This document shows, piece after piece, positions 12,661-51,650 of a stretch of DNA of 64,000 bases. Location of the stretch: contig QPGO01000102.1 in the NCBI GenBank assembly GCA_008632985.1, forward strand, positions 1 to 64,000, given 5' to 3'. This DNA comes from Psammoneis japonica. Its lineage: Eukaryota. Both the position numbers and the translations under genes were made by a program. The notes below the pieces were generated by a model. That model had not been told where the DNA came from and made no database searches. It saw only the letters and a list, made by a program, of their open reading frames with translations. Each line of letters starts with the position of its first letter. The first letter of the stretch is position 1.

Positions 12661-12989
12661 AGCAAGTCAAGATGTGTAGTTGCGGCAGAGATGTACACCG
12701 TACAAAGGGATTTTTTGTGTGAAGAGCGAAGTCGATTTACCTGACGGATTTCAGGGTGCATGCAAGTCTTCGCTTCTCGTCCAGGTCTTGGGCCATGCAA
12801 CAGGCATTCGTTGGGACCAACATGGCAGGAAAGTGAAATCGATACGCAGCCGGGGACCTGGCAATGGGATTAGTCTACCTGGTATGTTCCCAACACGCGA
12901 GACACGTCTACTGCTAGAGAGGGCGGCTGCATACATTGTTAAGAAAGGGTCAATCATGATGCACAATAAGCCACAATGGCGTTATAGAA

Positions 12990-13443
12990 CCAAGTCGCGA
13001 ACTGACCTGACAGTTGTACTCTATCTTATCCTTGACGTGCACAGCAATTTAGTGGTTCAGAAAATCGGCCCAAGTGTAATTGACAAAGAAATGTTGGTTC
13101 CCCCGAAAGTAGAGGGACGAGTAGAACTTCTTGACGTTCCAAACCTTGATTGGATTGACCTTGTATTTGACCACATCCACGTTCACATTAACTTCGGGGC
13201 TATCCACAATATTCTTGAGACCCTTGCGAGGAATAGGGATCGATTCTCCTCCGAGGTCAATGGGAAAGTCAGCGAATCCTTCGAGTTTTCTCAAGCAAAA
13301 CCACCGTGAATCCCCGACGCCTCGAGAATATATTTCAACTTCGCCGGGTTTGGCATTCTTCTGAATAGAGTGTAAGCCGTAGTCCATCCAGCAGCGCCGG
13401 CTCCAGCTACCAACACCTTGGAAGGTGCCATGCTCTTGTTCAT
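12990..13443 (-). pseudogene. Flavin-containing amine oxidase, N-terminal fragment (copy A)
   Basis: KVLVAGAGAAG (FAD-binding), ILEASGIHGG and FADFPIDLGGE. Frameshifts and a stop are present. The C-terminal half is missing relative to copy B. Confidence 0.75.
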
Positions 13444-17528: not shown

Positions 17529-17769
17529 TTGTTCCTTCGTCCGCTCTCTATGTGCGTCTCCATCTTTTTTGTAGTGTTTTTAAAAGTCGTCCAGAGAATC
17601 CATTCACTCGAATGCCTTTTGCTTCTATTCTTGATCTTTGTCGCTTTATTTTATCGCGAATGGATCATGGATCTGATCTTTTCTTTTTTATGATGATGAT
17701 GCGGATGCAGGATGTTGAAACTTAAAAATTCATATTCGTAAATGAGTAAATGCTTATGATCCGGAGAGC

Positions 17770-19958
17770 TCAGAGGCTCTAACACACAGCCAGCATCAGT
17801 CGCACAGACAAGGATTCTTCGAGGCAATCAGAGGCAGCTGCGCAGGGGTTGTGTGGATGATTCCCTGTGAAAGATGAGGAGCTGAGCTTCAAGTGCACTC
17901 TGTGACAGATGGTGTGCAACAAAATGAATGTGAAAACAGATCATGAAGTGTGGCAGGGGCCAACAAGGAAGCAGCACACACAGAAGAGATTGTCAAAGAA
18001 AAGAGGCAAGGGCAGCAGCGAAGCAGATGCGAAAGAAGGCCACAGGCCAGCAGTGGCGTGACAGTGGAAAAGCTGAGCTGTTTTCTTCCACCCCCTCTCA
18101 TAACTGTCACCAGCTTCACACATGCTCTTGCTCAGCACCAGCACTTGGAACCAGCAGAGACTCTCTCTGTCACTCCTCCTGAGAGTCCTGGGGATGCACA
18201 GGGCAAGTGAGAGAGCCTGGAGACATTGTGTGGAAAAAGTTTGTGAACACTCACTGCTCTGCTGCACTGCAGGGGGCGTGGCATGCAAGAATGTGTCTGG
18301 TGAGCATGGCAGAGCAGCTTGTGCCAAGCTCAGAGGTGTTTGCCCTGTGTTCTTTTGCTGTGCCAGAGAGCTGTCATCTCAGGGCAGAGAAAACATTGCT
18401 GTGTTGGCGCATCAAAGGAAAAGGAGAAGCGAGAAGAGCCAGGAGCAATTGCACAACAGAAGCACCCAGCTGACAACAAGGGTGTTGGTCAATGGGTGGT
18501 GTCAGCAACCAAGATGTGCATGTCTCACGCAGCATGTCATGAGCCTTCGGAAGACTGTTTGTGCACTCAAACAGACTCTGGTTTTCAGACATGTTCCCAC
18601 TGCTCAACGGACACACCAAATCAGCAACTGCATTGGAAATTGTCCCAGACCTTTCTCCTGCTGCACTCCCAGTGTTGGTGAATGCTGCCCATGCTGGACA
18701 TTGGCAGATCAAATCCGGGGTGCTCCGGTCTCTCTGCCACCCGCTCCTTCAGTTCCCAATGATTTTTTTGCTGTGTTGAAATTTCTCCCTCTGGATGGGA
18801 GTCATTGCTGTTTGATGGCTTGACTTTGCACCTGTCTGTGTTTGAGATTGCACCAGTGGGCAGCAACAGATCGGTTCTGAATTTTTGGGGCACATTTGGT
18901 TGGACACTCCTCACAGTTGACAGGAGTCCATTGGTTGATTGTGCTGGACCATTGTTTGGTTTTCTCCTGCTGTCTTGTCACGCTGAAGCATGTGGACCTT
19001 TGTCCTTTCTCCATTTCCTGTTTCAGCTGATGGAATGTTGTTGCAAAAAGTTTGTGCCAAAGGTGTGGACCTGCATTGTGACAACTCATCGCCAGTTCGC
19101 AATGTCTCCAATTTTCAGGTGTCACCTTGTCCGGCAGATGATGAGGCCACATTCAAAGTGCCAGTGATCATTGCCAATGACATCACATTGCAAACACTCT
19201 CTCTGCTGACTGAGATCTTTTACACAAAATTTTTCACTCCATGCAACAAATCTGCAAAGCATCCAGTGATGATCAGTTTGGCACCAAGGTTGCTGTCCAC
19301 TGGGTGAAGGGTCACCAAGACGAAACATCACCCATCAAATCCTTGTCCCTGGCAGCCAAGTTGAATGTCCAAGCCAACAAACTGGCAGGACAATGCCAAA
19401 GCCATTGAATGCCCCACTGCAGGGCCAACCTGGTTGTTCAGGGAGCTGCAGTCTCATCCAAGTGCAAGTGTGCTGTCCAATGTGAAGCATCAAGTCCAGC
19501 CCTCATTGGCTGTGCATGAAAGAAAAGCATGGTTGGTCCATCCAATGAAGTGTGCAAATCTGTTGACTGGGAAGTGCGCGCCAAACTGATGCATTGAAGT
19601 GCCCATCAGAAAGTCAGCACCATCAAGCAAGCCAGTGCAGGACCTTCTTTTGACAAACAACATCGTCCATCAACACAACCCCACCTGCCCCAATTGTTGC
19701 GTGCACTGTCAAGATCCAATGGAAGACAGAGACCACATTCTCTGCTGCCCACACAACAAAGCTTGGCACCAAGTGGACCTTGTTCATCCTCATGGATGTT
19801 GGCAAGAGCTGGCAACAGATGGGCCAAAATGCATGAAGCTGTGCATGGAGGGCCAATGTCAGCAATGACTTTGCCCCAGTTTGACCTCTGTCAAAGCAGA
19901 TTTTTCAACAGCCACAGGCTGCACTGCATGGTCAACTGGGTGCTGATGTGACTGCTCT
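17770..19958. other. Hypermutated relic domain 2 (left flank of Copia-1)
   Basis: TA and most CG are lost abruptly after about 17780. Confidence 0.85.
19290..19800 (+). mobile_element. Degraded non-LTR retrotransposon fragment (RNase H end + C-terminal CCHC)
   Basis: HWVKGHQD...LAAKLNVQANKLAG (RNase H N..AD.LA motif) at 19298, followed by CVHCQDPMEDRDHILCCPH at about 19700. Confidence 0.65.
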
Positions 19959-20234
19959 TGACAGGATTTGAACAGGATTTGGATGCGCGCGAAGCATCGC
20001 GCGCTGTTTAGTTTACCGCGCACACCTTTGTGTGCTTTAGTTCCGCGCGTTCACGCGCGATGTAGTTTGCTTTCGAGCCACAAGGCTCACAAGAATAATA
20101 ACAGTAGCCCGATTGTACCGACTTACACGTCTTTCGGCTCCTGCAACGGTCTCTGAGCGGAGACTCATCTGCTATTTAGACAGCAGTAAGGAGTTATTGT
20201 TTGAATTCTTGCCATTTGCCTTCAATTTCTATCA
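19959..20234 (+). repeat. Copia-1 5' LTR (276 bp)
   Basis: Direct repeat of 26793-27069; ends TGACAG...CTATCA. Confidence 0.95.
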
Positions 20235-21173
20235 GATTAACAGTCTTGCTCATTGTCAACCCATTGAGCAACCGCCATCGTCGTCGTTGATTTACCAACG
20301 ACGCTATTTCAATTCTACGTGGACCTCCGTATATATTCTACATACATCGGCAAGTCTACGCGCATTCAATACCAGGGCATCGGCAGGAAGTTAACGTCAC
20401 CGTCAAGTCTCCTTACCGCTGGATATCTGGATTGATTATACTACCTTTGATCGCTGAAGACATACATTCAACGGTCACATCCAAGTCTATCCTTGATCCT
20501 CATCCCTTGATATACCTATTCATCGGTTAACGGTCAAGAACCCTACATATTCAAGGATCTTCGTCGCTGAAGACATGTGTATATATACATATCTTCACGG
20601 CCAAGAACCTGTACCCACTCTTCGGACTGCGGTTTTGCTGCCACTCTACAAGCACACCGAGTCCATTGTACCTGATCTACCCCGGACTACTGGTGCTCTA
20701 CAGTTCTACTAGGTCCACGAGGACGACTGTGAGAGCAAGCAGCCGTGATTGCAGCCTGCGTTGGGGCGAGGGTGCTTTCCCGCGTTTGTTCGTTCGTCCA
20801 CAGCGCCCAACGCCTGCGTCAACTGGCCAGCCTGATCGGGAAATCCAACCGACATAAAACAAGAAGGGTTCGGGGGTCTTGTCCACCTCCAGTCAGCTCA
20901 CCTGCAGGGGTTTGCAACCCGCCACTCCACTCGCAAGCAACCCAAAGCGCCGCCAGCTGCGGGTTCGGACGTGCCGGCACAACTCTACGGACCGGATGGG
21001 AGGTTCAGCACTTGACAACGAACGGGATGACAAAGCCCGGCAACTTCTGATTTTAAGACAGTTCAAGATTTCAAGTCAAGTCTGTTTCAAGTCAAGTCCA
21101 TTCTCACCCAAGTTTCGAGTCTGCCTTCACTTCCCAACCAGAATTGATTGTCCTGACACCACTTTTGTCTGCC

Positions 21174-24100
21174 ATGGTTCTCACTCGTCAGCAACAAACC
21201 GATGGTTTCGAGCACGTTGTTGGAACCGTGCTTGCCCAAGGTGCTGGGAGTCCTCTTCGTTTGGCTTTGGCCCAAGACGGCACGGACTCGCATCAGGAAC
21301 TGTTCACGTTCATGCCGTCCCAAATCGACTCGCTTGAGTGCGACAACGGCACCAATGCAATCCCTTTGCCCCGTGGTCATGAGAACATGTTGGCAGCACT
21401 GGTCAGCCTGCACATTGTCAAAGCACACAAAGGTCTTGACGTTGCCAACGACTCCTCTTTGTTCATGCATGACGAGTTCCTTGCCTGCCGCCTCAGCCCG
21501 GACTGCATGTCCTCTCTGTCCATCGGCAGCTCACCCCTTGCACCTCCACATGTCACCAACCCGACCAAGGCACGCGACCCGGTGCGAGACTTCAAGCGAG
21601 GCATCAAGCGTGATCCCACCGCTTTCACGGCTCTCAAATCCGACAAGCAGTGGCACACTTGGCACACCTCACTTGTGGCACAAGCCCGTGCCCAAGACGT
21701 CGAGTGCATTCTAGACTCGTCGTACAAACCGACCAGCCCCGAAGACAAACTGCTCTTTGCTGAACAGCAAAAGCACATGTTCGACGTCTTCGAACGCATC
21801 CTTCTCACCGACAAGGGCAAGGCTCTCATTCGCGAAAATGTGGGGTCTTCTGACGCACAGACCGTCTGCCGCTCCTTGTCTGAGCACGCGCTTGCCTCCA
21901 CCCGTGCATCTGTCGAGTCCTCCACCCTGCTCACGCACCTCACCACCGCACGTCTTGGTGATGGCACTTGGAAAGGTCCGACCCGCGGGTTCATCCTTCA
22001 TTGGCAAGATCAGTTGCACAAGTGTGAGGCACTCATCCCCGCCAGCGACCACTTCTCTGAAGGACAGAAGCGCGTCATGCTCGAGAATGCCGTGCACCCT
22101 GTCGAGGAACTCCGTGCTGTCAAGAACCAAGCTGATCAGCATTGTGCGCAGAGTGGCAAGAGCCTCACATGCGATCAATGCTGTGGCTTGCTCCTCTCCG
22201 CGGCAGCTCAGTGCGACAGCACGTTTCAACCCAAGACGACACCTCAAGCTCCCCGACGCGCCACATGCGCACACGACGTCTGCTCCGAGGAACCGTCCGA
22301 CGATGTGTTCTACGACATTGACAGCGACGTTGACGTCCTTCAAGCCAATGCTGCCTGCACCCGTGGTCCCAGCCTCGCCGGTGTCCAATGGAGACGTCTC
22401 CCTCCCGACCACCAACGGCTCTGGGATTCGCTGCCCGATTCCTCCAAGGCGATCATCCTTGAGCACTCTCGTCCGCCTCCCCGCAACCCGCGAGCCAGCA
22501 ACTGCCATGAGTCTGTTGCGGCCAACCTTCACGACCAACACCTTGGGAGTGACGGTGATGTCAACTTGTCCAACACGACTCCTGCTGACTGTGGTGACTC
22601 CGCCACACATGTGGACGCCACTTCGGACAATCCCATCCTGGCGCACCTCACCAAGCGCAAGCCACTGCCACCCGGTGATCTGCAACGTCTGTTGTCTCCC
22701 AACCAAGCCCCCAATGCCAGTCGACCGGGGCCATCCGCCGCTTCCTCTGTCCCGCCAGCTTCTGCAGATGACACAGAACTCAACGGCCGCACTTGCCACC
22801 GCGTTGACAACCACAATGTCATTTGCTCTGCCTCTGCTCATCGCTCCACACGCACTGGCGCTCTAGTCGATCGTGGAGCCAACGGCGGCATTGCTGGCGA
22901 CGACGTTCGCGTCATCGCACGCACCTCTCGCCAAGTCGACGTTCAGGGCATTGACGATCATCAATTGGCGGACATCCCCATTGTCACCGCTGGTGCCGTC
23001 ATTGAGACACAGCGTGGTCCCGTCATCGCCATCCTCCATCAGCGCGCATGCACGGGAAAGGGCAAGACCATCCATTCCTGCGGCCAGCTCGAATGGCACA
23101 AACAGGATGTCAACGATCGCTCTGTCAAGGTGCCCAACGGCTTGCAACGCATTGCCACTCCTGATGGCTGTGTCATCCCCATTGACATCAAGGCTGGCCT
23201 GCCTTGTGTTGCCATGCGACCTTACACTGACGCCGAATGGGACACCCTGCCCCATGTCATCCTCACCGGTGATGACACATGGGACCCTTCCGTCCTCGAT
23301 CACTCTGTCACTGACGATGACCAGTGGCACGACGCGATCTCTGACCCACAGGACGACCCCACTGCCAACCTGTTTGACGAACACGGCAACTGCCGTCACC
23401 GTGTCGTTGTCAACGAGACCATCTTGTCCGCTTCCTTGTCTGCCGATCACGCGTCCGCCCTCGATGATCACCTCATTCCGAACGACGACATGTTCTGCGA
23501 GTGTCATCTGCATGCGATTGACCCCAAGGGCGATGACGTTCCACCTCCGGAGCGCACTGTGCAGCCCAAGGACCCCCCCTTCGAGTCTCTTCGGCCTCAC
23601 TTTGGCTTCCCACCTGCCGATGCGGTCCGTCGCACTTTTGACTGCACCACGCAGTGCGCCCGCATGCCCGCCGGTACACACCTTCGCAAGGCCTGCAAAT
23701 CACCCAACCCCACCCTTAATGTGCACCGCCGCAACGAGCCTGTCGCCACTGACACCGTTTGTGCCGACACCCCAGCCGTCGACTCTGGTTGCACCAGCGC
23801 CCAACTGTTTGTTGGCACCGAGTCTACCGTCACTGACGTCTGCGGCACTGAGACGGACAAAGAGTTTGTCAACACACTCGAGGATCAGATCCGTGAACGT
23901 GGTGCCCCATCCAAACTCATTAGCGACCGTGCTCAAGTTGAGATCAGCAACAAAGTGCTCGGGATCCTACGCGCCCTCTTCATCTCCAGCTGGCAAAGTG
24001 AGCCTCACCAGCAACACCAAAACTTTGCCGAGCGTCGATGCCAGACCGTGGGAGCGCATGGCGAACACTGTCATGGACCGTTTTGGTTCGCCCGCCCACA

Positions 24101-26845
24101 CCCTGGCTGCTGGCGCTCATGTGCGTGTGCTTCATGCTCAACCACACAGCGTCCCCACGTCTCCACTGGTGCACGCCCCTCGAGACTCTCACTGGATCCA
24201 CCCCGGACATCAGCCCATTGCTTCGCTTTCACTGGTGGGAACCAGCACACTTCCACCTCGATGACTCCGATTGGCCGTCCGAATCCCGTGAGTTGCGTGG
24301 ACGCTTTGTTGGCATTGCTGAGCACGTCGGCCACCAGATGACCTTCAAGATCCTATCTGACGAGACTCAGAAGATCCTCTGCTGGTCCAACGTTCGCTCT
24401 GCCACCCCCGATCCTGCTGTTCGAAACCTGCGTCTTGATCCTCCTGATGGGGAGCCACCTGAACCCATCATCAAATCTCGCCATGACGACAACCCCGTCG
24501 ATTCTCCTGATGGGGAGATCAGGACACCCAAGATGCCAGTTTTCGATCCGCAAGACATCATTGGACGTGCCTTCCTCATGCAGCCACAAGAGGATGGACA
24601 ACGCCACAGAGCTCGCATCGTCAAGGCCGTCGAAGACCACGAATGGAAAGTGAACGGCAATCCCGAGCTCACTAAGTTCGTCTGCTCTGTCAACAATGAC
24701 GAATACGAGGAAGTCCTTGCCTGCAATGACATCATGAATCACATTGAGCAAGAAGACGAAGACACCACCATTTGGAAATTTCGACGCATCGTGTCACACG
24801 AAGGACCTCTGAAGCCTCACGACCCAACCTGGAAAGGCTCAAGCTACAACATCATGCTTGAATGGGAAAGTGGGGAGATCACGTCCGAGCCTCTTGCCAT
24901 CATCGCCAAGGACGACCCCGTCACCTGTGCCATCTATGCACGAGAGAACGGACTCCTCGACACGGATGGCTGGAAGCGGTTCCGCACTGTCGCGAGGCGC
25001 CAAAAGAAGCCATTTCGCATGGCCAACCAAGCCAAGCTTCGCTCCTTCCGCACTGCACCTCGCTACAAGTACGGGTGCGAAGTTCCCCGGAACTGCAAAC
25101 ACGCCATGTCACCAGACGAACGCAACGGCAACCGCAAGTGGGGAGACGCAACTAATCTCGAGATGGACCAACTCGACGAATACGAAGTCTTCCATGACTG
25201 CGGGCCCTTCAAGTCTTCCACTCCTCCTGCGGGACACAAGAAGATCCGAGTGCACCTGGTGTGCGACGTGAAACACGACGGTCGCCACAAGGCACGACTC
25301 GTAGCCGACGGGCACCTCACGGACGCCACCTGTCGACAGTGTCTACTCCGGAGTAGTCTCCCTCCGTGGCCTTCGGCTGATGATTTTCCTGGCCGAACTC
25401 AACGAGCTGGAGACATGGGCCACCGACATTGGCAATGCCTGCCTTGAAGCCACCACCAAGGAGAAGCTTTACATTGTAGCTGGACCCGAATTTGGCAAAC
25501 TCGAAGGACACATTCTTGTCATCCACAAGGCACTGCATGGACTGCGCAGCTCCGGTCTCCGCTGGCACGAGCGCTTCGCCGACTGCCTGCGAGCTGAAGG
25601 CTTCTTCCCCTGCCGCGCCGAACCCGACATTTGGATGCGCAGGAACGGCGACCACTGTGAATGCATTGCCGTTTATGTGGATGACCTCGCCATTGCCATG
25701 AAGGACCCTCAATCTTTCGTCGACACTCTCACGGAAAAGCACAAGTTCAAGCTCAAGGGTGCGGGACCCATTGAGTTCCATCTGGGTTGCGACTTTTCCC
25801 GGGACCCCGACGGAACCTTGTGCCTGTCTCCGCGCAAGTACATCGAGCGCATGGTCGACAGCTGCGCCCGACTGTTTGGGGAGAAACCTGCCACCAACGC
25901 CCTGTCACCTCTAGAGAAGGGTGACCACCCCGAACTGGACACTTCCAACTGCTGGGACCCGATGGCATTCACAAGTTCCAGTCTCTTGTTGGTTCACTCC
26001 AGTGGGCAGTGTCCCTTGGTCGAATTGACATTACCACGGCTGTCATGTCACTCTCTAGCTTCCGAGCTGCGCCCCGTCAAGGCCACTTGGATCGTGCCAA
26101 ACGCGTCTGTGGGCACCTCTCCAAGATGCGACACGGTGCTCTCCGCGTTCGCACGGAAGAGCCCGACCATTCGGATCTCCCTGCTCCGGCCTGTGAATGG
26201 ATGCATTCCGTGCATGGTGAAGCAGAAGAGATGATCCCGAAGGACGCTCCACCGCCCCTTGGCAAGTTCGTCACTGCCACCCACTACGTCGATGCAAACT
26301 TGTGCCATTGCATGCTCACCGGACGCTCTGTCATGGGAATGCTCCACTTCCTCAACAAATTCCCGGCTGATTGGTTCTCCAAGAAACAAGCCACCGTGGA
26401 GACTGCAACCTGCGGATCTGAATTTGTTGCCGCAAGGAATTGTGTTGAGCAGATTGTCGACCTGCGCATCACCCTGCGCTGCCTTGGCGTCCCGATCCGT
26501 AATGCCAGTTGCATGTTCGGTGACAACAAGTCGGTTGTAGACAGTGCCACCATCCCGCACTCCAAGTTACACAAGCGACACACCGCACTGTCATTCCACC
26601 GTGTGCGTGAGGCAATTGCCTCTGGTTACCTTGAGTTCCACTTCATCGAAGGCTCCCGCAACCCTGCTGACATTCTCAGCAAGCATTGGGGTCACTCCCA
26701 AATCTGGGACCTTCTCCGCCCCCTCATGTTCTGGAACTTCATTCCATCCGAAGTCGAATCTGTTTCTGTGGCTCCTCAAGCAAACTGGGGAGTGACAGGA
26801 TTTGAACAGGATTTGGATGCGCGCGAAGCATCGCGCGCTGTTTAG
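21174..26845 (+). pseudogene. Copia-1 gag-pol, frameshifted and hypermutated
   Basis: PR LVDRGANGG; IN LISDRAQ...QNFAER; chromo-like insert; RT DGRHKARLVA and YVDD; RH DAN...GSEF...DNKS...NPADILSK. Frameshifts near 24050, 25327 and 25947. Confidence 0.9.
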
Positions 26846-27069
26846 TTCACCGCGCACAGTTTTGTGTGCTTTAGTTCTGCGCGTTCACGCGCGATGTAGT
26901 TTGCTTTCGAGCCACAAGGCTCACAAGAACAATGACAGCAGCCCGATCACACCGACTTGCACGTCTTTCGGCTCCTGCAACGGTCTCTGAGCGGAGACTC
27001 ATCTGCTGTTTTAGACAGCAGTGAGGAGCCATTGTTTGAATTCTTGCCATTTGCCTTCAATTTCTATCA
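26793..27069 (+). repeat. Copia-1 3' LTR (277 bp)
   Basis: Direct repeat of the 5' LTR with about 15 substitutions and 1 indel (manual alignment). Confidence 0.95.
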
Positions 27070-27074
27070 GCTCT

Positions 27075-30000
27075 GCACTCTGGTGGTGTGCATGGCTGGC
27101 ACCCACATCTGATGTGTCCACCACCCCAAACTGGGTGCTGTCATTTCATGTTTGATTTGGGCATGCTTCAATGTCACACCTCAAAAAAGTGCATCTTTGA
27201 ACAACAGCCATGCACTTTGAGTGCTTGAAAGATCAAAATTTTGCAAGGTGCAGCCACACTTGCAGCCACTTGGGAGGAAATGATGGCTGCTGTGAGCACA
27301 TGTGGAAAATGCACTTTGGTGAAAAAACGGCTTGAGTGGCTGGTGAAAAACAAGGTGAGCAGCAGCTTGAGCATTCCCAAATTCAAAGCTGAGAGCCAAT
27401 CAAGTGACAATGATGAGAGCAACACACACCGGTGACAGAGCCAGCACTTGTTTGGGTGTTTGAGCCCAACTCAGGTGAAGTTGGCTGGGGGGTGAAGCAA
27501 GGTCCGGATTTTGCAGCCTGACTTGCCTGGTTGAACCCCACAGTTTTGGTTGAAATTGTTTGGAGAGCATGCTGTGAGCACCACATTTCTGAGTGAGAAT
27601 GATGGCATGCATGGCAGGAATCCCACGTCACCCATGCAGAAGAACTCTCTGGCACCCCTGGTGTGGGAAATTTCTGGCTGAGGGTGTGGCTGGGATTTCT
27701 TGTGCACAAGGGGATGTGCCAACACACTCAATTTGTTTCCATCCATTGTCATGCACAAGCAGGGGCATGGATGAAAAGTGACCCACAGAGCACCTGCCTC
27801 TCACAATTGTGGAACCCTGCTGATTGTTGCATCAGCTCTTCTTGTTGTCATTCCCAGCTCTTTTTCATGTGGTCATTTGTTTGGTTTGTGTCATTGCCAT
27901 TGATGCACGGCAATGTTCAGTTGCAACCCACAGCAGGAATCTCAAATGACTTTTGTGGCAAATGCTGCACTGGTCCTGTGAGCCCTTGGTGGCTTGGCGG
28001 GGAGGCAACTGCCAAGTTTGCTGTGCTTGCACACACAGAGGCAAACACAAGCTGCAAGCTCAGCTGTTGCTGAGCTGCAGTTTGTTGTTTGCAAACATGC
28101 AACACACAGGCACATGGACATGTGCCAGTTGCCCAATTGCCATCAGCCTTGTGTGCAAAAAGGCTGTCTGCTGGACTGCAATGCTGCCACTTTGGCTCTG
28201 GGTTGATGTTTGGATTCAACAGCATGCACCTCAAACAGTTTGTGAAAAATCTGGATGCATGCAAGCAATGCCTCTTTGAATGTCATGTGATGCTCAATGT
28301 TTCACTCCCCCTTGTGATGATGGTGTGTGGCCAAAAATCTTGTGAGAGATGCCAAAGTGTCCAAACAACACAATCACACATCTCAGCAGCAGCCCATCAC
28401 ACCTGTGAATGAACTGAATTCTTTCTTGCTCTGTGGCTCAGCTGTGCACTTGATTGCCTCAACCTTCTTTGTCAGCCACCTCATGCCCTGCCTTCCCAGG
28501 TGGTGACTTCACATCGAAGGTGCTCCAAGAGAGTTTGGCAAAAGATGGGCTTCATGACATTCGCCTGAAGCAAGTGTCTTGAAGCAAGCCTTTTGCAATT
28601 GCCAGAGTCAACAGGAATTTTAGAATTGATGAAAGGAGCAACTAAAGAATTTCACACAATGCACGAGACACAGGTGGAATTGTCAAAACTGCGTGAATGT
28701 TCTTTCCAGACCAAATCACTGGGTGCATTGTTTTGAAAGCATTCGCGCAACATGGTGATCAAGTTGTCTCTCCACCTGGTTTTTGCTTCAGCAAGTCACG
28801 ATGTGAGCCGCAGCTGCAGAGATGTCTGCACCACACAAAAGGATTTGTGTGAACAGCAAAGTCAATTTGCTGTGGCAGACGGATTTCCAGCTGCATGCAA
28901 GACCTCTCCTCTCCTCCAGGAGGTCTTGGGCCATGCAACAGCCATTTTTTGGGACAAAAATTCCGGGAAAGTGAAGCCGGGCGGTGTGCAGCCGGGGACA
29001 TGGCAATGGGACTTGTCTGCAAGAGAGACCTGCTCCAACTGGCAAGAGCGCTGCTGCACACATTGTCAAGAAAGAGTCAACCATGGTGCACAATGAGCCA
29101 CAACGGCACAGCAGAGTCAAGTCGCGAACCACTCACAAACCCCTCATGGCATGGCCTTTGCAATCCACCTCATTTCTGATGTCCTTCAGGATCCATTTGG
29201 CATGACGGGTGCCACTCAGTGAAGTGCCGTGGGCACACCCAGTGTTTGACTCATCCTCAGGAGTGTGCTCTCCAGCAAAATGCACCGTGTCATCGACAGG
29301 GTCCAACATGGTTGCANNNNNNNNNNNNNNNNNNNNNNNNNNNNNNNNNNNNNNNNNNNNNNNNNNNNNNNNNNNNNNNNNNNNNNNNNNNNNNNNNNNN
29401 NNNNNNNNNNNNNNNNNNNNNNNNNNNNNNNNNNNNNNNNNNNNNNNNNNNNNNNNNNNNNNNNNNNNNNNNNNNNNNNNNGCACTGGTTTGCAGGTTCC
29501 CGATGAGCAAACATGGCTGGCACATGCTTGGATGTCTGTTGTCCACACATTTCATCATGGCAGCACTTCTCGCCTTTTTTGGTCAAAGGTTCATCCAGAG
29601 AAACTGTCGTGGCAGAACTTCTCCAAAACTCAATGAATGCTTTCAGTCTGGGAAACACAACCCCATCCTGTTGAGAGCTCTCTGCTTTGTTGGTGGAAGC
29701 CGCGGAGAACACTGAATGACACTGTTTTGGAGAGTCTGGAGAGGAGCTGTCACAATCATGTGATCCACTTTGCAGACCTTGCCGCCCTTGGCAAATGCTT
29801 TTGCGGTGTCACCAGAGCAGCCCACATTGACGACCTGACAACTGCACTCGATCTTGTCCTTGACGTGTGCACAGCGATGCAGTCATTCAGAAAATTGGCC
29901 CAAGTGCAATTGACAAAGAAAAATTGATCCCCCCAGAAGCAGGGGAATGAGCAGAACTTCTTGCTGTTCCAAACCTTGATTGGATTGACCTTGCATTCAG

Positions 30001-30270
30001 CGGCATCAGCACCCACACATTGACTTTGGAGTCATCCACAACATTTTCTTGAGAAGAGCCTTGTGATGAACATGGAGATCCATTCTCCTCCAAGGTCAAT
30101 GGGAAAGTCAGCAAATCCTTCAAGTTTCCTCAAGCAACCACCGTGAATCCCCGATGCCTCGAGAATCTGGGTGTCAACTTCGCCGGGTTTGGCGCTCTTC
30201 TGAATGGTGTGAGCCGCAGCCAGCACTTTGGAAGGTGCTGCCATGTGTTTGTTTTTATGAGGCCTGTTGC
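27075..30270. other. Hypermutated relic domain 3 (contains assembly gap 29317-29481)
   Basis: TA is almost absent until about 30280, where TA-rich sequence (GTAC, ATATAATAT) resumes abruptly. Confidence 0.85.
29170..30244 (-). pseudogene. Flavin-containing amine oxidase (copy B), TpA-hypermutated
   Basis: MAAPSKVL...ILEASGIHGGCLRKLEGFADFPIDLGGEWI and C-terminal VHFAGEHT...GCAHG. Alignable to 12990-13443. Confidence 0.75.
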
Positions 30271-37162: not shown

Positions 37163-37510
37163 TGTGACAATATTCATATTTGCATGTTTTTACAACAACA
37201 TCGGACCTCCACGATCCAATCAGAGATCCAAGATTCGAACCCCGTGTGCGATGCTCAGTCTCGAATCCCGCGGAAGCCGAGTCACGAATGCGATGTTTGT
37301 TCCTAGCTTCGCGCTTGTTTAACTTCGCGTTTCCTTTAGATGGCAGCTGCATCTGCTCATAAAAAAACTGCTCATAATCTTTCTAACGTGCTGATTATCA
37401 CCTCTCAACTTTTGGTACAATAAAGTTACTGATTGATTGTTGCATCGCAATTGCAGCTTTTAATCACTGAAAGTGCAGACGAATCCCAGAATTCCGGCTA
37501 CTTTCCCACA
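37163..37510 (+). repeat. Copia-2 5' LTR
   Basis: TGTG...CACA; direct repeat of 43394-43741. Confidence 0.97.
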
Positions 37511-37584
37511 CGCTTCCTCTGCAAAATCTACAAGTTAAGTCAATCGATCTTAAGCTCTCGATTCTACTTTACTCTGCTGTTACT

Positions 37585-39090
37585 ATGGTCATGCAGACAC
37601 GAACCGCGGCTGCTCTAGCTGCCTCTGTTGCAGCTCCCGCTGCTGCACCCGCTGCAGCTCCTGCCACTGCTGCTGCTCCGGCAACAGCACCTGCTCCTGC
37701 AGCCGCTCCAGTTGCTCCTGTACCTCCCCCAGTCGTTCCTCCCGGTGCACCTCCAGGAGGAGGTGGCGGAGGAGGTGGAGGAGGAGGCGGAGGTGGAGTC
37801 CCACCAGGTGGAGTCCCGCCAGGTGGACCACCATTGGCACCTGTGCCACCACTGCCGATCTTCGCGTTGACTCCAGGTCAACACCGTCCCAACAACTTCA
37901 TCGACTGCGGCACATCGCAAGGCCTCAAGCTTTGGAACGCCGCCACTGCACCGCTGCCGCACGAGTTCAACGGCGATTCAGAAGGTCTCAAACGGTTTTG
38001 TGAGACACTCAGTCAACGAGCTGCCGAGGCAGGATGGAAAACAGGGGCAGGAGACATGCTTGCCATTCCCGACGCGAATGGAACTCCACGAGATCTCATC
38101 TCCGAGTACGGACTACTCACTCTACAGGATGTTAGAACCCACGCGAACACCTTCGCGAATCTGCCTGCGCGACAAGCACAGAACAATGTGCAGATGGCCG
38201 AGGCGATCTCTCAATCCCTTACGGAGGAAGCAAGAGACAAGATGTTGGCTGAGATAGATTCCCACACGATCAATGGAAATCAAATCGGCACACTGTTCTT
38301 CAAGCTGCTTGCGCAAAAGGCCATCGTTGACACACGCTCTGCCACCAACTACTTCCGCGAGAACTTGTCAAGCCTGGACACGCACATGGCGGCTGTCAAC
38401 TCGGACATCGAAGAGTTCAACAAGTGCGCCAAGCTCAACGTTGACGGACTCCAAGCTAGAGGAGAGCAGTGCGACGACCTTGTCATGAATCTGTTCAAAG
38501 GATGCGCCGCAGCTGCTGACGAAGCATTCGTCAAGCACATCATGTTGCACAAGGACAGGTGCGACGACGGTGAGGAATTCACGCCGACGCAAATCATGAC
38601 GTTGGCACTGAACAAATGTGCTGACCTCAAGCGCGAGAAGAAGTGGGGAGCACTGTCACCGGCTGAAGAGCAAATCGTCGCGCTTGCAGCCAAGGTAGAC
38701 TCCATCAAGGATCAGAACCTTCAGCCATCTAAAGCTTTGAAGGCCAAGGCTGGTTCAATCAAGGAAAGAAGCACACGGTCAAGGAAGACCAAGACCACTC
38801 CACGTCAGAGACAGAAAGCGGACGAAGCCTGGAAGAAAGTCCCACCCAAGGAGGACGCTCCTAAGAAGACAGTGAACGGTCATCAGCACTGTCACAAGCG
38901 CGTCAACAATCGCGACTGTCACTGGTGCCCATGTCACACTGCTTGGGTCATGCACTTGCCTGATGATCCGGGCAACCAAGGCTGTAGACTCCGCAAGCAA
39001 CAGTCTGCTCCATCCACAGACATGTCGGACAAGAAAGTCTCCTTCGCAAGTGCTGTCTCTGCCATCCTAAACGAAGTGGATCAAGAGTGA
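37585..39090 (+). CDS. Copia-2 gag-like ORF (Ala/Pro/Gly-rich N-terminus, C-terminal WCPCH..W..H..C knuckle)
   Basis: 501-aa ORF directly after the LTR/PBS; ends in a TGA that is in frame with pol. Confidence 0.8.
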   Translation: MVMQTRTAAALAASVAAPAAAPAAAPATAAAPATAPAPAAAPVAPVPPPVVPPGAPPGGGGGGGGGGGGGGVPPGGVPPGGPPLAPVPPLPIFALTPGQHRPNNFIDCGTSQGLKLWNAATAPLPHEFNGDSEGLKRFCETLSQRAAEAGWKTGAGDMLAIPDANGTPRDLISEYGLLTLQDVRTHANTFANLPARQAQNNVQMAEAISQSLTEEARDKMLAEIDSHTINGNQIGTLFFKLLAQKAIVDTRSATNYFRENLSSLDTHMAAVNSDIEEFNKCAKLNVDGLQARGEQCDDLVMNLFKGCAAAADEAFVKHIMLHKDRCDDGEEFTPTQIMTLALNKCADLKREKKWGALSPAEEQIVALAAKVDSIKDQNLQPSKALKAKAGSIKERSTRSRKTKTTPRQRQKADEAWKKVPPKEDAPKKTVNGHQHCHKRVNNRDCHWCPCHTAWVMHLPDDPGNQGCRLRKQQSAPSTDMSDKKVSFASAVSAILNEVDQE

Positions 39091-42000
39091 CTGCTCTGCA
39101 GGTTCACTCTGACACTGCTGCTGTCCTTGCAGACAGCCGTCACTGTGTCAGTGCTCCTGATGGCGGTCGCTGGCGTCATGAAATGTGCAGCACCGATCTG
39201 GATCACACCGCCATTCATGATGCTGTCCCTTCCTTCAGAAAAGTGCAAGCGCCTGTCACATGCCGTAATGACGCTGGGTGAGTGGGTCATCTCACATGTC
39301 CTGGCTGAACTGGGCACAAGACGAGTTAAGACTCACCAGCGACGGCCAACGACGAGGTGCTGCGCACGGTGTCATGCGTCGACAAGGCCAGGTCACCGCT
39401 CCAAAGTGGCCACCAAGAAGGCTCACTGTGTCATTGCGCGATGCAAGACGGTTAGAGCGTGCAACTCAACCACACCATGCCGTCCCAAGCGAACGGAGCC
39501 CACTTGCGATTCGGACTCATTCGCAATCGGCGTCGACTCGCATTCTTCCTGCACCATGTCCAACGACGAGGCACACTTCATTGGTCCTCTTCGCAAATCC
39601 AACAAAGTGGCACTCGGTGTCAAGGGCTGCTTGCGTGCTGAGGGAGAAGGAACAGTGCAGTGGGCAATTGAGGACGACATGGGACGAGTGCACAGCATCA
39701 AAATTCGAGACGCGCTGCTCGCACCGGACTTGCCTCATTGTCTTCTCTGCCCGCAGCAATGGAGCCAGCAAGCTGATGACCACACGCCAGAGCCTCACGG
39801 AACCGCATCTTGGACTGGGGACGACGGACTGTTGCTGATGTGGGACCAGCGCAAGCATCATCGCCTGATTCCATGGTCCACCAACTCTAACGTCGCCAAG
39901 ATGCGCTCCACACCCGGTTCCAACAAACACCAGACCTTTGCAGCCGCTGTCGAAGAACAAACCGACATCGAAACTATCGAACACGTGGCCCATCAAGCTC
40001 ACATCATACCACCAGACGACGAGAGCATTGCGAATGATGACGAGGCTGCAATTGATGCAGACGTCTTCAGAAGTCCATCCGAGACACGTCCTTCCGAGAC
40101 GCAAGACGCACGCAACACCACTGATGAGGATGCTTCTGTCTCATTTGAGCCAACAGACGGAGCAAGTCGTTCAGACTCAGACGAGGAAAACCCAAGGGAT
40201 TTCACAACACCGGAGGCACAGCAGGACTTGCCGGAACCCATCAACATCATGCCAAATGATGACGCCCTTGCTGCCACAGATGACCAGGGTGAACCATTGC
40301 GTTGGCATTGCCGCCTGGGCCACATGTCATTCAAAATGACAAAGCCATTGGCCGCCCCAGGCATTCTACCGAAACGCCTTACAAAGGTGCACAACCCAAA
40401 ATGTGCCGGCTGCCTGTACGGTGCCATGACGAAACGACCATGGCGCTCCAAGTCCAAGCGGAGCCGACGAATCCACTTGGCAACTTCGCCTGGAGAAGCC
40501 GCATCCATCAACCAGCTCGAGAGTCCTGCTCCTGGATTGATCCCACAGCTCAAAGGGAGACCTGCGAAACAAAGGCATCGAGCAGCGACAATTTTTGTTG
40601 ATCATTTCAGCGGATTGGGACACACACATTTGCAGAAAGGACTCACCTCAGCCGAGACGCTCGAAGCCAAGCACGCTTTCGAGGCATTCGCACGCCGGAT
40701 GCACGTCCGCATTCAACACTGCCACGCCGACAATGGAAGATTTGCTGACAATGCTTTCATACAAGACGTCAAGAAGCAACAGCAAACAACATCCTGTTGT
40801 GGGGTCAACGCCCACTTCCAAAATGGCATCGCGGAGAAAAGAACAAGGGACCTCCAAGAGCAATCTCGGAAGCAACTCCTGCATGCAAAAGTGAGATGGC
40901 CAACGGCTGTTGAGTTGAACTTGTGGCCAAGCGCTCTCAGGAACTCAAACAAGATCAAAAATCACTTGCCGAATCACGAGGACGGCTCTTCTCCGCTGGA
41001 ACGTTTCTCATCCGTCAAGGTCCAGCCCAATCTCAAACAACACCATGCCTTCGGCTGTCCCGTCTACGCCTTGCACAACCGGTTGCAGGGAGGAGGCAGG
41101 CTGCCTGAGTGGGACCCAAGGGCAAGGTTAGGAATCAATTTGGGACCATCAACAAGACACGCAGGTTCAGTTACCTTGGTTTTGAATTTGCAGACCGGAC
41201 TCGCATCGCCGCAATTTCACGTGCAATTTGACGACTTCTTTGAGACTGTTCGTCCATCTGCTGGGAATCCTCCTACATTCTCACAATGGCAAGGCATTGC
41301 AGGTTTCAGACAACTCAAGACAAGGAGCACTTTCAACATCTTTGGGAAATCAAGTGACGCACCGGTTGAGGGATCAGTCCCTGCCACAACGGAACCACCT
41401 AAGCCGAATTCGGATGTCCCGTCTCAGCTGCTGCATCCTGCTGATACGTCTGCCACTGATGACTCATTTGACAATGCCCAACCGGATGATGAAATGCTGT
41501 GCACGCCTCCAGATGATTCTGACGCACCATCTGAGCCACAGTGCACTGTGGGTCAACCCAGCACCAGCAGGTCCGGCTGACAACGACGCCCGACCGAAAG
41601 GATGCGCGAGAGCCAACTGCAACGGGCTCAAGGCATTGTCTCCCACCATGCAGAGGCAGAGGCATGTCATGATGCGATGCACGAGGATGATTACAAACTG
41701 CAGGATGACATGGACTCACCCATCTCTTTTCTGGCGAGCTCGGACCCCGACACCATGCACTTTGATCAGGCCATGCATGAACCTGACAGAGACGAATTTA
41801 TCAAGGCCTGTGTTAAGGAGGTCAATGATCACATTGAAAGGAAACATTGGATGCTCATTCCAAGAGAGGATGCACCTGACGATGTTGATGTTCTCCCTTC
41901 GGCATGGTCTGTGAAGCACAAAAGAGATGTTAAGACCCAAGCCGTCTACAAATGGAAGTCCCGACTTAATGTGCACGGCGGAAAGCAAGAGCATGCTGTC

Positions 42001-43350
42001 AACTGCTTCCAGACCTGCTCTGCCATGGTCTTCTGGTTCACTGTCCGGCTCCCACTGATCATTGACATTCTTAAGAAGTGGCGTGCACACCAAGTCGACT
42101 TCGTTCTGGCGCGTCCGCATGCCGACATCGAATGTGACATGTGCATGGAGTTGCCTGCAGGAATTGAAGCAAAATGTGGCAATGGCAAGACTCATGTTCT
42201 GAAGTTGCTCAAGAACTTATATGGACAAAAGCAAGCAGGGAGAGTGTGGCAAGAACACTTACGTGATGGATTGTTAAGGATTGGTTTCGTACAATCGGCG
42301 GTTGATGAGTGCCTGCATTTTCGTGGCAATGTCATTTTCATTCATTGTGTCGATGACGGCATCTTTGCATCCCCTGATGAGTCTGCTGTTGACAAGGCGA
42401 TGCAGGATGTCAGAGATGAGAATTTTGACATTGATGATCAAGGCACTCTGGACGACTATCTCGGTGTCAACGTCGAGACACTGCCAGACGGCAGAATGAA
42501 ACTTGCCCAACCTCACCTTGTCAATCAGATGCTGGAGATGGCCAACATTCCAAAGAGACTACCAGATAAGTCTACTCCTGCTCCTTCCTCCAAGATCCTC
42601 CACAGACATATGAGTGAGCCTGCTTTCCAAGGGAGCTTTCATTACCGATCCATCATCGGCAAGCTCAATTTTCTGGAGAAGAGCACTCGACCGGACATCG
42701 CTTACGCGGTGCACCAAGTCGCACGCTTTTCTTCCGATCCCAAGGTTTCTCACGGTGAAGCCGTACTATGGCTCTGTAAGTACCTAAGGTCAACCAGAAC
42801 TGAAGGTATTATACTACAGCCCTCAACGGACAAGTCCCTTGAAGTTCACGCCGACGCGGACTTTGTGGGCAATTGGAATAAGCTGACTGCACCCAATGAC
42901 GTCGGCACTTCCAAATCTCGAACTGGGTTTGTCATCACCTATGCAGGATGTCCGATTGTCTGGACGTCCAAGCTACAGACTCAGATCGCGCTCAGCACTA
43001 CTGAAGCTGAATTTATCGCTCTTTCGGAAAGTCTTCGAAGCGCCATCCCAATTATGAACCTAATTCAAGAATTTATGGATCACGGTCATAATGTCCCTTC
43101 CAAGACACCAGTCGTACATTGTAAGGCTTTTGAAGACAATTCTGGAGCATTGGAGATCGCGAGATTGCCTAAGATGCGTCCTCGGACAAAACACTTCAAC
43201 CTCACTCTCCACCACTTTAAAGACCATGTTCGCAAAGGTCTCATATCAATCCTACCAATTGATACGGCGGATCAGATTGCAGACATTTTCACCAAACCTC
43301 TACCACAGAATCTCTTCGTTAAGCACAGGAAATCGCTCCTTAAGTGGTAA
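39091..43350 (+). pseudogene. Copia-2 pol (PR-IN-RT-RH), one internal TGA at 41578-41580
   Basis: PR GVDSHSS; IN WHCRLGH..C..C, ADNG and QNGIAEK; RT KNLYGQKQ and CVDD; RH ADADF, STTEAE, EDNSGA and QIADIFTK. Confidence 0.9.
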
Positions 43351-43393
43351 GACGTTTTCGAGTCATCATTCCACCCGACATTGTTGAAGGGAG

Positions 43394-43741
43394 TGTGACA
43401 ATATTCATATTTGCATGTTTTTACAACAACATCGGACCTCCACGATCCAATCAGAGATCCAAGATTCGAACCCCGTGTGCGATGCTCAGTCTCGAATCCC
43501 GCGGAAGCCGAGTCACGAATGCGATGTTTGTTCCTAGCTTCGCGCTTGTTTAACTTCGCGTTTCCTTTAGATGGCAGCTGCATCTGCTCATAAAAAAACT
43601 GCTCATAATCTTTCTAACGTACTGATTATCACCTCTCAACTTTTGGTACAATAAAGTTACTGATTGATTGTTGCATCGCAATTGCAGCTTTTAATCACTG
43701 AAAGTGCAGACGAATCCCAGAATTCCGGCTACTTTCCCACA
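43394..43741 (+). repeat. Copia-2 3' LTR
   Basis: Direct repeat of the 5' LTR. Confidence 0.97.
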
Positions 43742-51449: not shown

Positions 51450-51650
51450 AAACTCACACACATGTAAATAGTAGAGCACTAGTAGAATAAAACATTAAGA
51501 ACCAACTGATCATTGCCTTGTTTTGGCCTTCAAGAGTCTAGAACGATCATAGAAGAAAACGCGGCCCCTTATCTAATTGAAAATGAGTTAACAGCTCCGC
51601 ACAATCAAAGATAGAGCTTGCTACCAATAACGCGATGAAACACCTACCTC

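Follow-up and report, generated by a model that had tools for sequence, protein, structure and literature searches.

The window, the whole 64-kb stretch of DNA analysed here, contains a Ty1/copia-type LTR retrotransposon (Copia-1, 19959-27069) whose LTRs, of 276 and 277 bp, are 94.6% identical, have TG...CA termini and are bordered on either side by an intact 5-bp target duplication, GCTCT (Table 1). The open reading frame at 25380-26234 matches RVT_2 (PF07727; Ty1/copia reverse transcriptase family) with E=4.9e-18, and this reverse transcriptase keeps the YVDD motif, while the conserved LYGL motif reads LHGL. The closest library relatives of the Copia-1 protein share 65-69% identity with it, RVT_2 being present in one scanned (P0363), and ten polyproteins match Copia-1 collinearly over 21174-26827 (tblastn). 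In an intact 1881-aa relative, whose match to Copia-1 is collinear, the reverse transcriptase occupies residues 1367-1577 and only approximately 300 aa follow, in keeping with the copia order; no integrase profile matched Copia-1 or this relative. Family contigs carry the same letters as the purine-rich tract next to the 3' LTR and end before the LTR start (contig loose-end table). A second Copia element, Copia-2, is unrelated to the first, and blastn and repeat searches found no other copy of either within the window. The 64-kb window also gave no tRNA or Rfam matches, and scans for the LTR pattern returned 0 matches in metagenomes (two scans) and in viral contigs (one scan).

Table 1. Coordinates of Copia-1, its flanking blocks and the comparator element within the window.
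Feature	Position	Strand	Remarks
Older TA-free, CpG-poor block, left half	17750..19958	.	TA o/e 0.03, CG 0.19, TG 1.84, CA 1.82
Target-site duplication, left copy	19954..19958	.	GCTCT; identical 5 bases adjoin both LTRs
5' LTR	19959..20234	+	276 bp; TG...CA termini; unmutated state; 14 TA
Leader / 5' UTR	20235..20750	+	TA-rich; largely spared
Copia-1 body	20751..26792	+	hypermutated tract; remnants of gag-PR-INT-RT-RNase H spread over four shifted frames
Reverse transcriptase core, Pfam RVT_2	25413..25862	+	residues 12-161 of ORF 25380-26234
Purine-rich tract	26782..26792	+	...GGGGAG adjoining the 3' LTR; likely polypurine tract
3' LTR	26793..27069	+	277 bp; 5 TA left; CpG intact
Target-site duplication, right copy	27070..27074	.	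GCTCT
Same older block, right half	27070..30250	.	TA o/e 0.01, CG 0.20, TG 1.91, CA 1.90 (measured 27070-29316)
Copia-2	37163..43741	+	second Copia element, unrelated to Copia-1

The frequency of TA differs sharply between the parts of Copia-1. From a TA o/e of 0.77 in the 5' LTR and 1.04 in the leader, the ratio falls to 0.14 in the body and stands at 0.30 in the 3' LTR, delimiting a hypermutated tract of 6.3 kb (20751-27069; TA o/e 0.14-0.30) that has normal CpG and the 3' LTR at its end. CpG o/e stays between 0.90 and 1.34 across the whole element; in the body it is 0.90, with TG at 1.51, CA at 1.31 and a GC content of 0.576, versus 0.467-0.478 in the leader and LTR. The edge of the tract is sharp and lies within 20710-20855: TA is dense up to 20710, after which only 20855, 20986 and 21054 are found before 21600. 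Relative to family copies, the leader has three TA losses of its own (20478, 20577 and 20579).

Copia-1 lies within an older block that has lost nearly all TA and most CpG (Table 1), and whose right half contains an assembly gap (29317-29481). No Pfam match was found among nine ORFs of these older sequences, which are strand-symmetric in composition (TG 1.84-1.91, CA 1.82-1.90). To the left of 19958 there are two TA in 2.2 kb and none in the last ~0.9 kb, followed by 14 in the 276-bp LTR; because the flank is nearly TA-free while the adjoining 5' LTR has so many, the block predates the insertion. The loss of TA in the older blocks is near-total, and the loss of CpG is separate and slower, probably reflecting the ordinary decay of methylated cytosine. 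Spreading of the mutations into Copia-1 from the flanking block was considered and rejected, since the 5' LTR abuts TA-free DNA yet has kept all its TA, and the flanks of Copia-2 are normal. The extent of the tract was more probably set by targeting of the element body, through small RNA, chromatin or transcription, than by simple spreading from the flank.

The LTRs of a retrotransposon are identical at integration, and the argument that an earlier note on this DNA built on this identity is sound. Alignment of 19959-20234 with 26793-27069 (MAFFT, in agreement with a separate pairwise count) gave 15 substitutions and one 1-bp indel, the substitutions comprising 14 transitions and one transversion with the MAFFT placement of the indel, and confirmed the concentration at TpA that the note had described. 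At nine of the 15, a TA of the 5' LTR corresponds to TG or CA in the 3' LTR (20014, 20096, 20100, 20105, 20116, 20125, 20174, 20188 and 20195, with ambiguous indel placement at 20174). The remainder are a double difference of TG versus CA at 20114/20115 (two substitutions), a T/C difference at 20194 beside a TA site, the sole CpG-to-TpG change, at 20044, as the note had also observed, and two unrelated differences at 20025/20026. The note's figure of about 11 of 15 changes at TpA holds if the TG/CA swap at 20114/20115 is counted as two TA-derived changes, and is strictly nine of 15; the swap may descend from a TA ancestor, a CG ancestor being equally possible in principle.

This concentration is far greater than expected from the composition of the LTR or from other duplicated DNA nearby. 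Positions inside a TA make up 28 of the 276 in the 5' LTR, so that nine of 15 substitutions there corresponds to a binomial P=3.2e-6. As a control, tandem duplicates of a host gene in the same window showed 19 TA-associated transitions among 211 differences (Fisher P=5.8e-6 versus the LTRs), split 8 versus 11 between the copies and with a ts:tv of 106:105. In the LTR pair the changes are one-sided: every one of the nine TA states belongs to the 5' LTR, and the 3' LTR has no TA of its own (P=0.004 under equal hits), and the five TA left in the 3' LTR, versus 14 in the 5' LTR, are all shared. CG counts are 21 and 20, respectively, and at 11 of the 15 substituted positions an A or T of the 5' LTR is matched by a G or C in its 3' counterpart. 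The differences between the LTRs are thus confirmed to be mostly TA steps turned TG or CA in one of the two. TA dinucleotides with a 5' A or a 3' T neighbour were lost most completely.

The LTR pair alone cannot orient these changes. Repeat-induced point mutation (RIP), found in Neurospora and other fungi, converts C:G to T:A with a preference for CpA to TpA, leaving DNA that is AT- and TA-rich and in which stop codons arise. A RIP-like C-to-T process at CpA or TpG could in principle have created the TA of the 5' LTR, with the 3' LTR retaining the ancestral state, and comparison with relatives of Copia-1 makes this reading scarcely credible. Among the family variants listed from contigs of the same genome (40 of 375 places, of which 39 are in-element and none is inside an LTR, so that absence there is no evidence), at least 11 body sites read only TA in the family and CA or TG in Copia-1. 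The TA share at these 11 listed sites is 0.28-1.0, with six at ≥0.86, for example 21006 (0.97), 22700 (0.98), 22749 (0.99) and 23382 (1.0). TG/CA swaps account for at least seven of the listed sites, three of them with a minority TA state, and CG is found in only one contig listed.

Homologues from other species point the same way, also when the reverse transcriptase core is considered by itself. At 32 columns where ten intact homologues conserve Tyr, Copia-1 encodes Cys (TGY) at 13, His (CAY) at six, Arg (CGC) at one, Trp (TGG) at one, Phe at three and Tyr at eight, while the control columns are largely kept (Phe 20/22, Trp 13/13, His 18/18). Tyr makes up 0.3% of the 1095-codon Copia-1 frame versus 1.5-3.8% in host ORFs, and coding DNA cannot ancestrally have had a TA o/e of 0.01-0.14. 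Native codon bias was rejected as an explanation for the low TA of the body, Tyr being at 0.2-0.3% where homologues conserve it; Copia-2 was rejected as an outgroup (20-26% protein identity, LTRs unrelated). The affected parts are GC-richer (0.576 versus 0.47) and no TA excess occurs anywhere in the window (maximum TA o/e 0.77 in 2-kb windows), the reverse of the RIP hallmark of C:G-to-T:A change with more AT and TpA. In the LTRs, polarity is testable at two of the nine sites only, via one family LTR variant (loose-end table): at 20187-8 the 5' LTR has TA, the 3' LTR TG and the family variant CA, and at 20195-6 these are TA, CA and TG, so that each state is one step from TA. Where the family could be compared, in the body and at these two LTR sites, the ancestral state is TA, rather than the TG or CA that would have signified ordinary RIP-like change in the earlier note. 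These comparisons indicate that the direction of change was from TA to TG or CA. The process resembles RIP in its dinucleotide-specific transitions at the DNA level, its destruction of repeats, its fairly sharp-edged tracts and its flooding of frames with missense changes, but differs in that TpA is destroyed, GC rises and TAA and TAG stops cannot form, so that frames stay open in tracts of the Copia-1 type.

Both strands were involved. The 3' LTR changes comprise five TA-to-CA and four TA-to-TG, and the Tyr replacements in the body divide into Y>C and Y>H at 13:6. The earlier note had argued from the presence of both outcomes against RNA-level editing, and together they do rule out editing of the sense RNA alone. 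ADAR hyperediting of repeat-derived double-stranded RNA converts A to I, read as A-to-G, with a preference for a 5' U/T neighbour, and in both respects it resembles the changes in Copia-1. However, a sense-RNA edit fixed by reverse transcription would yield A-to-G on the sense strand only and would not make the LTRs different, whereas here T-to-C constitutes roughly half of the changes (5/9 of the LTR TA changes; Y>H 6 versus Y>C 13) and the LTRs differ. In APOBEC3-type editing, cytosine is deaminated on minus-strand cDNA before integration, so that only the plus strand shows G-to-A and the changes are as a rule common to both LTRs. Like APOBEC3, which acts in host defence, the process in Copia-1 produced clustered, context-specific hypermutation of an LTR element, but it changed A:T pairs on both strands and left the LTRs different, and strand-specific G-to-A was not found.

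Pre-integration editing could take a broader form, in which an adenosine deaminase acts on RNA, single-stranded cDNA or finished cDNA and the LTRs are different or mismatched at integration. APOBEC-type cDNA editing is a known route to clustered hypermutation, the spared 5' LTR is the one made last in reverse transcription, and there is a slight, non-significant sense A>G excess (Y>C:Y>H 18:8 over Copia-1 and Copia-2; P=0.08). Such editing is nevertheless improbable, as both strands were hit in the 3' LTR, the edge of the tract is a step and not a gradient, the 640 bp upstream of the 3' LTR of Copia-2 were spared where exposure of single-stranded minus strand should peak, and the old TA-free blocks are strand-symmetric. 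A comparable signature in the alga Bigelowiella natans also arose de novo in resident chromosomal DNA, according to the main text of a recent preprint (10.64898/2026.01.13.699255).

The sequence comparisons are best accommodated by a post-integration, TpA-specific process that acted on both strands and probably hit the Copia-1 body and 3' LTR, converting TpA to TpG or CpA, while the 5' LTR and leader escaped. Copia-1 would have inserted into an already degraded repeat block, and after integration TpA-specific mutation of both DNA strands would have passed over a contiguous tract, comprising the body and, less completely, the 3' LTR. Each TpA affected would have become TpG or CpA (A:T to G:C), with the 5' LTR and the ~0.5-kb leader escaping. 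Because the body and 3' LTR were hit and the 5' LTR was spared, the LTR pair would serve as an in situ record: TpA losses account for nine to 11 of the 15 differences, and each of them lies in the 3' LTR. This supports the earlier note's reading that the TpA changes occurred after insertion, in chromosomal DNA, and the logic of the LTR pair argues for a de novo origin in resident chromosomal DNA. The underlying chemistry may be deamination of adenine in 5'-TA-3' DNA, and modification or mispairing of T would give the same pattern.

Alternatively, the TpA process may be real and an unmutated copy may have supplied the 5' LTR together with the leader (19959 to about 20750), through ectopic gene conversion, recombination, or chimerism in assembly or polishing. 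The family is very abundant (13,893 contigs, run X1), the boundary between spared and mutated DNA is abrupt (last dense TA 20710, next 20855), and the assembly, which has a gap, is the sole link between the spared 0.8 kb and the body. Among the contigs listed, none runs from the unique flank through the 5' LTR into the body, and the only listed one that covers the flank (19737-19958) ends precisely where the LTR begins. Copia-2 likewise has normal ends, a mutated body and near-identical LTRs, as recombinant or trans-mobilised copies might. This account is unlikely, though by no means far-fetched. The same 5-bp duplication flanks both LTRs within one continuous old block, so that a chimera could arise only through two switches or a conversion tract, and the leader carries private TA losses (20478, 20577, 20579) and is therefore not simply the family consensus. 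Furthermore, even with gene conversion the 3' LTR changes must have arisen in a chromosomal copy, because retrotransposition homogenises LTRs.

Post-integration mutation of Copia-1 can be set beside the state of Copia-2, in which a tract at ~37620-42760 within the body is TA-depleted (o/e 0.18) and the LTRs, like the final ~640 bp of the body, are normal. The LTRs of Copia-2 differ at one of 348 positions, that one being TA versus TG. Its polarity agrees with that of Copia-1: at 14 Tyr columns Copia-2 encodes Cys at five, His at two, Arg at one, Phe at one and Tyr at five, and it additionally shows two I>M (ATG) and two V>A (GCA) replacements. The combination of near-identical LTRs with a heavily mutated body might mean that the mutated body was inherited via retrotransposition, or that the tract formed in situ.

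Hypermutation of foreign DNA through TpA-directed A:T-to-G:C change first appeared in print less than a year ago and has been shown for one alga. In mutation-accumulation lines of this alga, B. natans, two integrated viral regions of chromosomal DNA acquired 231 de novo mutations, of which 230 were A>G or T>C, all at TpA, and coding sequences depleted of TpA showed an excess of reverse-transcriptase and DDE domains (Mettrop et al., bioRxiv 10.64898/2026.01.13.699255). The words CpG, LTR, retrotransposon and copia are absent from that main text (10.64898/2026.01.13.699255). The Copia-1 signature matches TpA hypermutation as seen in B. natans, in what is apparently a different organism and on retrotransposons. 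In both cases the changes are almost exclusively A:T-to-G:C transitions (in Copia-1, 14 of 15 LTR substitutions are transitions, and Tyr is replaced through TGY, CAY or CGC), confined to TpA and yielding TpG or CpA by strand, and in both they are confined to regions of foreign or mobile DNA with TpA depletion and CpA+TpG enrichment in kb-scale clusters. Measured against the footprint cut-offs given in the main text for B. natans (Rho TpA ≤0.43, Rho CpA+TpG ≥1.52; 10.64898/2026.01.13.699255), the older blocks lie beyond both (TA 0.01-0.03, TG/CA 1.82-1.91), while the Copia-1 body lies beyond the TpA cut-off (0.14) and just below that for TG and CA (1.51, 1.31).

The two cases also differ in several respects. 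The host here seems to be another organism, the best matches of its proteins being at 54% identity or less and the named ones belonging to diatoms and one chlorarachniophyte. The substrate is integrated viral DNA in B. natans and LTR retrotransposons here, and the evidence comes from mutation-accumulation lines in the former and from an LTR pair in the latter. Depletion is far deeper in the window, with a TA o/e of 0.01-0.14 versus 0.45 in the NCLDV region of B. natans, as given in the main text (10.64898/2026.01.13.699255). Here, moreover, tracts begin and end inside elements with LTRs spared, and the old blocks have lost CpG as well.

The window adds to the published case a signature on LTR retrotransposons, apparently from a different organism, which extends up to near-complete loss of TA, and the LTR pair acts as an internal comparison of the states before and after, which dates the events to the time following integration. 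A fast TpA process can be separated here from slower CpG decay, and the starting and stopping of tracts inside elements, with LTRs sometimes spared, constrains any targeting model. A wider reading, to which we give slightly less than an even chance, is that this represents a second eukaryote, its host proteins closest to those of diatoms and seemingly not Bigelowiella, whose genome defence mirrors RIP chemically: kb-scale tracts have nearly every body TpA rewritten to TpG or CpA on both strands before the LTRs gain 1-2% ordinary divergence, the LTR or promoter ends frequently escape, and methyl-CpG decays at a later stage. In that case the process would be widespread among SAR protists and driven by an adenine deaminase that acts on DNA, or by a thymine modification specific to TpA, directed at the bodies of mobile elements; comparing LTR pairs across the genome could then give a measure of its rate and of the rules of its targeting. 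Hypermutated elements elude domain searches, since their Tyr codons turn into Cys or His codons and their frames remain open. Dating by LTR divergence would be inflated about four-fold in Copia-1, where there are 15 differences versus four that are non-TpA.

The segment at 19959-27069 is an LTR retrotransposon of the Ty1/copia type (Copia-1), flanked at each end by an identical 5-bp sequence, GCTCT. Its coding region is split among four shifted frames, and ten public-library polyproteins are collinear with it over 21174-26827, with identity in the reverse transcriptase (RT) core reaching 69%. No further copies were found within the 64-kb window by repeat search or blastn. Alignment of the two LTRs yielded 15 substitutions and one 1-bp indel (MAFFT and a separate pairwise count agree), reproducing both the number and the concentration at TA described in an earlier note made from the sequence alone. 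Strictly, nine of the 15 lie at TA (including 20174, the reading of which varies with indel placement), rather than the 11 given in that note, a figure reached only if the TG/CA swap formed by two neighbouring substitutions at 20114/5 is taken as two TA-derived changes. TA is the state of the 5' LTR at all nine sites (P=0.004 under equal hitting) and is replaced in the 3' LTR by CA (five) or TG (four), bearing out the claim that both outcomes occur; the remaining substitutions comprise one T/C adjoining a TA site, the single CpG to TpG difference already noted, and two unrelated changes. Such a concentration is improbable (binomial P=3.2e-6), because just 28 of the 276 LTR positions fall in TA. 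In a control pair, two tandem copies of one host gene from the same window, TA-associated transitions made up 19 of 211 differences (8 versus 11 by copy; transitions:transversions 106:105; Fisher P=5.8e-6 against the LTRs). The 3' LTR has lost 9 of 14 TA, compared with four non-TpA substitutions in its 248 other positions, showing that TpA changes are much faster than ordinary substitution. All five TA left in the 3' LTR are common to both LTRs, and CpG counts are 21 (5') and 20 (3').

Features of the two Copia elements and their surroundings (o/e, observed/expected dinucleotide frequency)
Feature	Positions	TA o/e	CpG o/e	Remarks
Older block around Copia-1	17750-19958 + 27070-30250	0.01-0.03	~0.2	TG and CA each ~1.8-1.9
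5' LTR, Copia-1	19959-20234	0.77	1.34	starts TG, ends CA
Leader, Copia-1	20235-20750	1.04	1.07	
Body, Copia-1	20751-26792	0.14	0.90	
ORF with RVT_2 (copia-type RT domain)	25380-26234			E=4.9e-18
3' LTR, Copia-1	26793-27069	0.30	1.13	starts TG, ends CA
Copia-2	37163-43741			
Body, Copia-2	~37620-42760	0.18		
Host-gene regions		0.4-0.8	~0.9-1.1	

A 250-bp map of the window and per-segment statistics placed the LTR difference at one edge of a larger structure. TA is dense as far as 20710, after which it occurs only at 20855, 20986 and 21054 before 21600. Left of 19958 there are 2 TA in 2.2 kb (none in the last ~0.9 kb), followed by 14 in the 276-bp LTR; the flank was therefore already degraded when Copia-1 inserted, and the process did not simply spread from neighbouring DNA. 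Within the tract, 24800-25350 forms a less mutated patch where TA rises to 4-5 per 250 bp and five consecutive conserved Tyr codons are kept (24845, 24935, 25064, 25181 and 25344).

The direction of change in the body was assessed within the genome and across species. For the same-genome family, Logan contigs from four sequencing runs of one sample were aligned to 19700-26792 at 80% likeness; the family is very abundant, with 13,893 contigs aligned from one run, X1. Variant contexts were classified at 39 in-element places (from 40 listed of 375). At 11 of these 39 the family contigs have solely TA and the Copia-1 copy has CA or TG (shares 0.28-1.0), the share being at least 0.86 at six of the 11 (for example, 21006, 22700, 22749 and 23382). 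Linked TG/CA swaps occur at seven sites, with TA as a minority state at three (21083/4, 23328/9 and 23347/8) and CG in one contig (22775). A further six places restore CpG in other copies, two have a CpG in Copia-1 that other copies have lost, and five show unrelated changes. Position 20710 is TA in the Copia-1 copy and CA in 40% of the family depth. Counted across every variant place in X1, there were 104 A>G, 93 T>C, 83 C>T and 60 G>A changes and 30 transversions. Across species, 32 conserved Tyr columns (five or more of the 10 intact homologues aligned, 70% or more of them with Tyr) are occupied in Copia-1 by Cys (TGY, 13), His (CAY, 6), Arg (CGC, 1), Trp (TGG, 1), Phe (3) and Tyr (8), with control residues conserved (Phe 20/22, Trp 13/13, His 18/18, Leu 50/56). 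Tyr accounts for 0.3% of residues in the 1095-codon frame, versus 1.5-3.8% in five host ORFs. The body therefore had TA ancestrally, and TG and CA are both common as outcomes. A reversed, RIP-like direction is contradicted, as all polarity data and the composition oppose it.

Polarising the LTR sites themselves by family copies, as the earlier note had proposed, succeeded in part. The 40 listed variant places include none in the LTR, and as they are a selection from 375, nothing is concluded from that. One family LTR variant among the listed contig ends has CA at 20187-8 and TG at 20195-6, where the 5' LTR has TA at both and the 3' LTR TG and CA, respectively. These three states are each one step from TA, so a TA ancestor is favoured by the sequences at two of the nine sites; at the other LTR sites it would follow from contiguity with the polarised body. 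No LTR copies were found in the metagenome and viral collections scanned. The LTR observation is confirmed, and its interpretation as TA changing to TG or CA after insertion is supported, with polarity at the LTR sites incomplete.

A second Copia element, Copia-2, is unrelated to Copia-1 (protein identity 20-26%) and its LTRs differ at one of 348 positions, itself TA versus TG. TA is at normal levels in both LTRs and over the final ~640 bp of its body. At 14 conserved Tyr columns in its tract (31 homologues) there are five Cys, two His, one Arg, one Phe and five Tyr; relative to the same homologues, the YVDD motif is CVDD and there are two Ile to Met (ATG) and two Val to Ala (GCA) replacements. 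With the body depleted and the LTRs almost identical, the process can therefore nearly saturate a body with the LTRs hardly changed. The mutated body may have been made in place or inherited from a mutated parent. Copia-2 has one reading frame with two in-frame stops, and Tyr is 0.2% of its PR-INT frame. In the interval 43394-43900, the 3' LTR overlaps a cytochrome-b5/molybdopterin sulfite-oxidase-like gene: the LTR end, 43741, falls within the gene's open frame, which starts at 43664, and lies ~80 bp ahead of the first encoded domain. The LTR may supply or disturb the promoter of that gene.

The changes affect A:T pairs within TpA on both strands, in tracts with a step-like edge. They would have arisen in integrated DNA, because reverse transcription yields two identical LTRs, with the element body as the likely target and adenine deamination in 5'-TA-3' as the probable chemistry, although a TpA-specific thymine modification mispairing with G would look alike. 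Editing prior to integration fits poorly with the involvement of both strands, the step at the tract edge and the sparing of the Copia-2 region directly upstream of its 3' LTR. A serious alternative to mutation of Copia-1 in place is that its spared 5' 0.8 kb is historically or physically foreign to the mutated body, as gene conversion or assembly/polishing chimerism could arise in a very high-copy family and none of the contigs listed bridges flank, LTR and body; however, the target duplication matches on both sides and the leader carries private TA losses. Among the 111 TA surviving in the pooled mutated regions (24.9 kb), 5' A (13/111, 12%, versus 28% expected) and 3' T (10/111, 9%, versus 26% expected) are scarce and ATAT is absent, which hints that ATA/TAT contexts are hit with the highest efficiency and suggests a sequence preference wider than TA.

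A comparable process has been reported in a preprint on Bigelowiella natans, the one relevant paper that full-text searching found. Of 231 mutations in an integrated giant-virus region and a virophage region of mutation-accumulation lines, 230 belonged to the A>G and T>C classes, every one of them at TpA, with rates ~1000-fold over background and in some lines only (10.64898/2026.01.13.699255). The same source describes 124 TpA-depleted, CpA+TpG-enriched clusters, reverse transcriptase and DDE domains enriched in TpA-poor coding sequences, and an ADAT2 homologue as the proposed DNA-acting adenosine deaminase; its main text uses none of the terms CpG, LTR, retrotransposon and copia (10.64898/2026.01.13.699255). 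As described there, the signature is that of this window. The process itself was already reported by 2026, and Copia-1 extends it to a new substrate and probably to a new lineage, with added anatomical detail. The host of Copia-1 appears from protein comparisons to differ from B. natans: the sulfite-oxidase ORF has no match above 54% identity (best with an organism name, Amorphochlora, 45%), and a cGMP-kinase ORF has matches of at most 42%, those with organism names being diatoms. For the Copia-2 RT, identity peaks at 72% in a match covering 68% of the query and at 67% among full-length ones, and the matches with organism names are diatoms at ~50%. Near-identical matches would be expected from a sequenced species such as B. 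natans.

CpG loss, near nil in both Copia tracts and ~80% complete in the old blocks, is a separate, slower process. Blocks resembling the older flank occur at 9750-12500 and 54750-60750, and a Pfam search of nine ORFs from such TA-free, CpG-poor blocks gave no match; they are probably old mobile elements in which the TpA process has run to saturation alongside CpG decay. Across 9750-12500, 17750-19958, 27070-30250 and 54750-60750, TA is 0-2 per 250 bp, CpG is near absent, and TG and CA are ~1.8-2.0 times expected. The right-hand flank block contains an assembly gap of 165 N (29317-29481). Two copies of an uncharacterised repeat (80-82% identical) lie at 12250-13320, retaining TA and CpG, and at 28350-30160, with neither; 29 transitions fall at TA of the former and none at TA of the latter. 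A ~356-bp unit is repeated in tandem about three times (8455-9197, 74-75% identity) at the edge of a TA-poor block, and tandem gene duplicates at 51650-54634 and 60915-63890 (93% identity; Calx-beta, LamG and glucose/sorbosone-dehydrogenase domains) are both normal in TA and CpG, with a 6-kb TA-free block between them.
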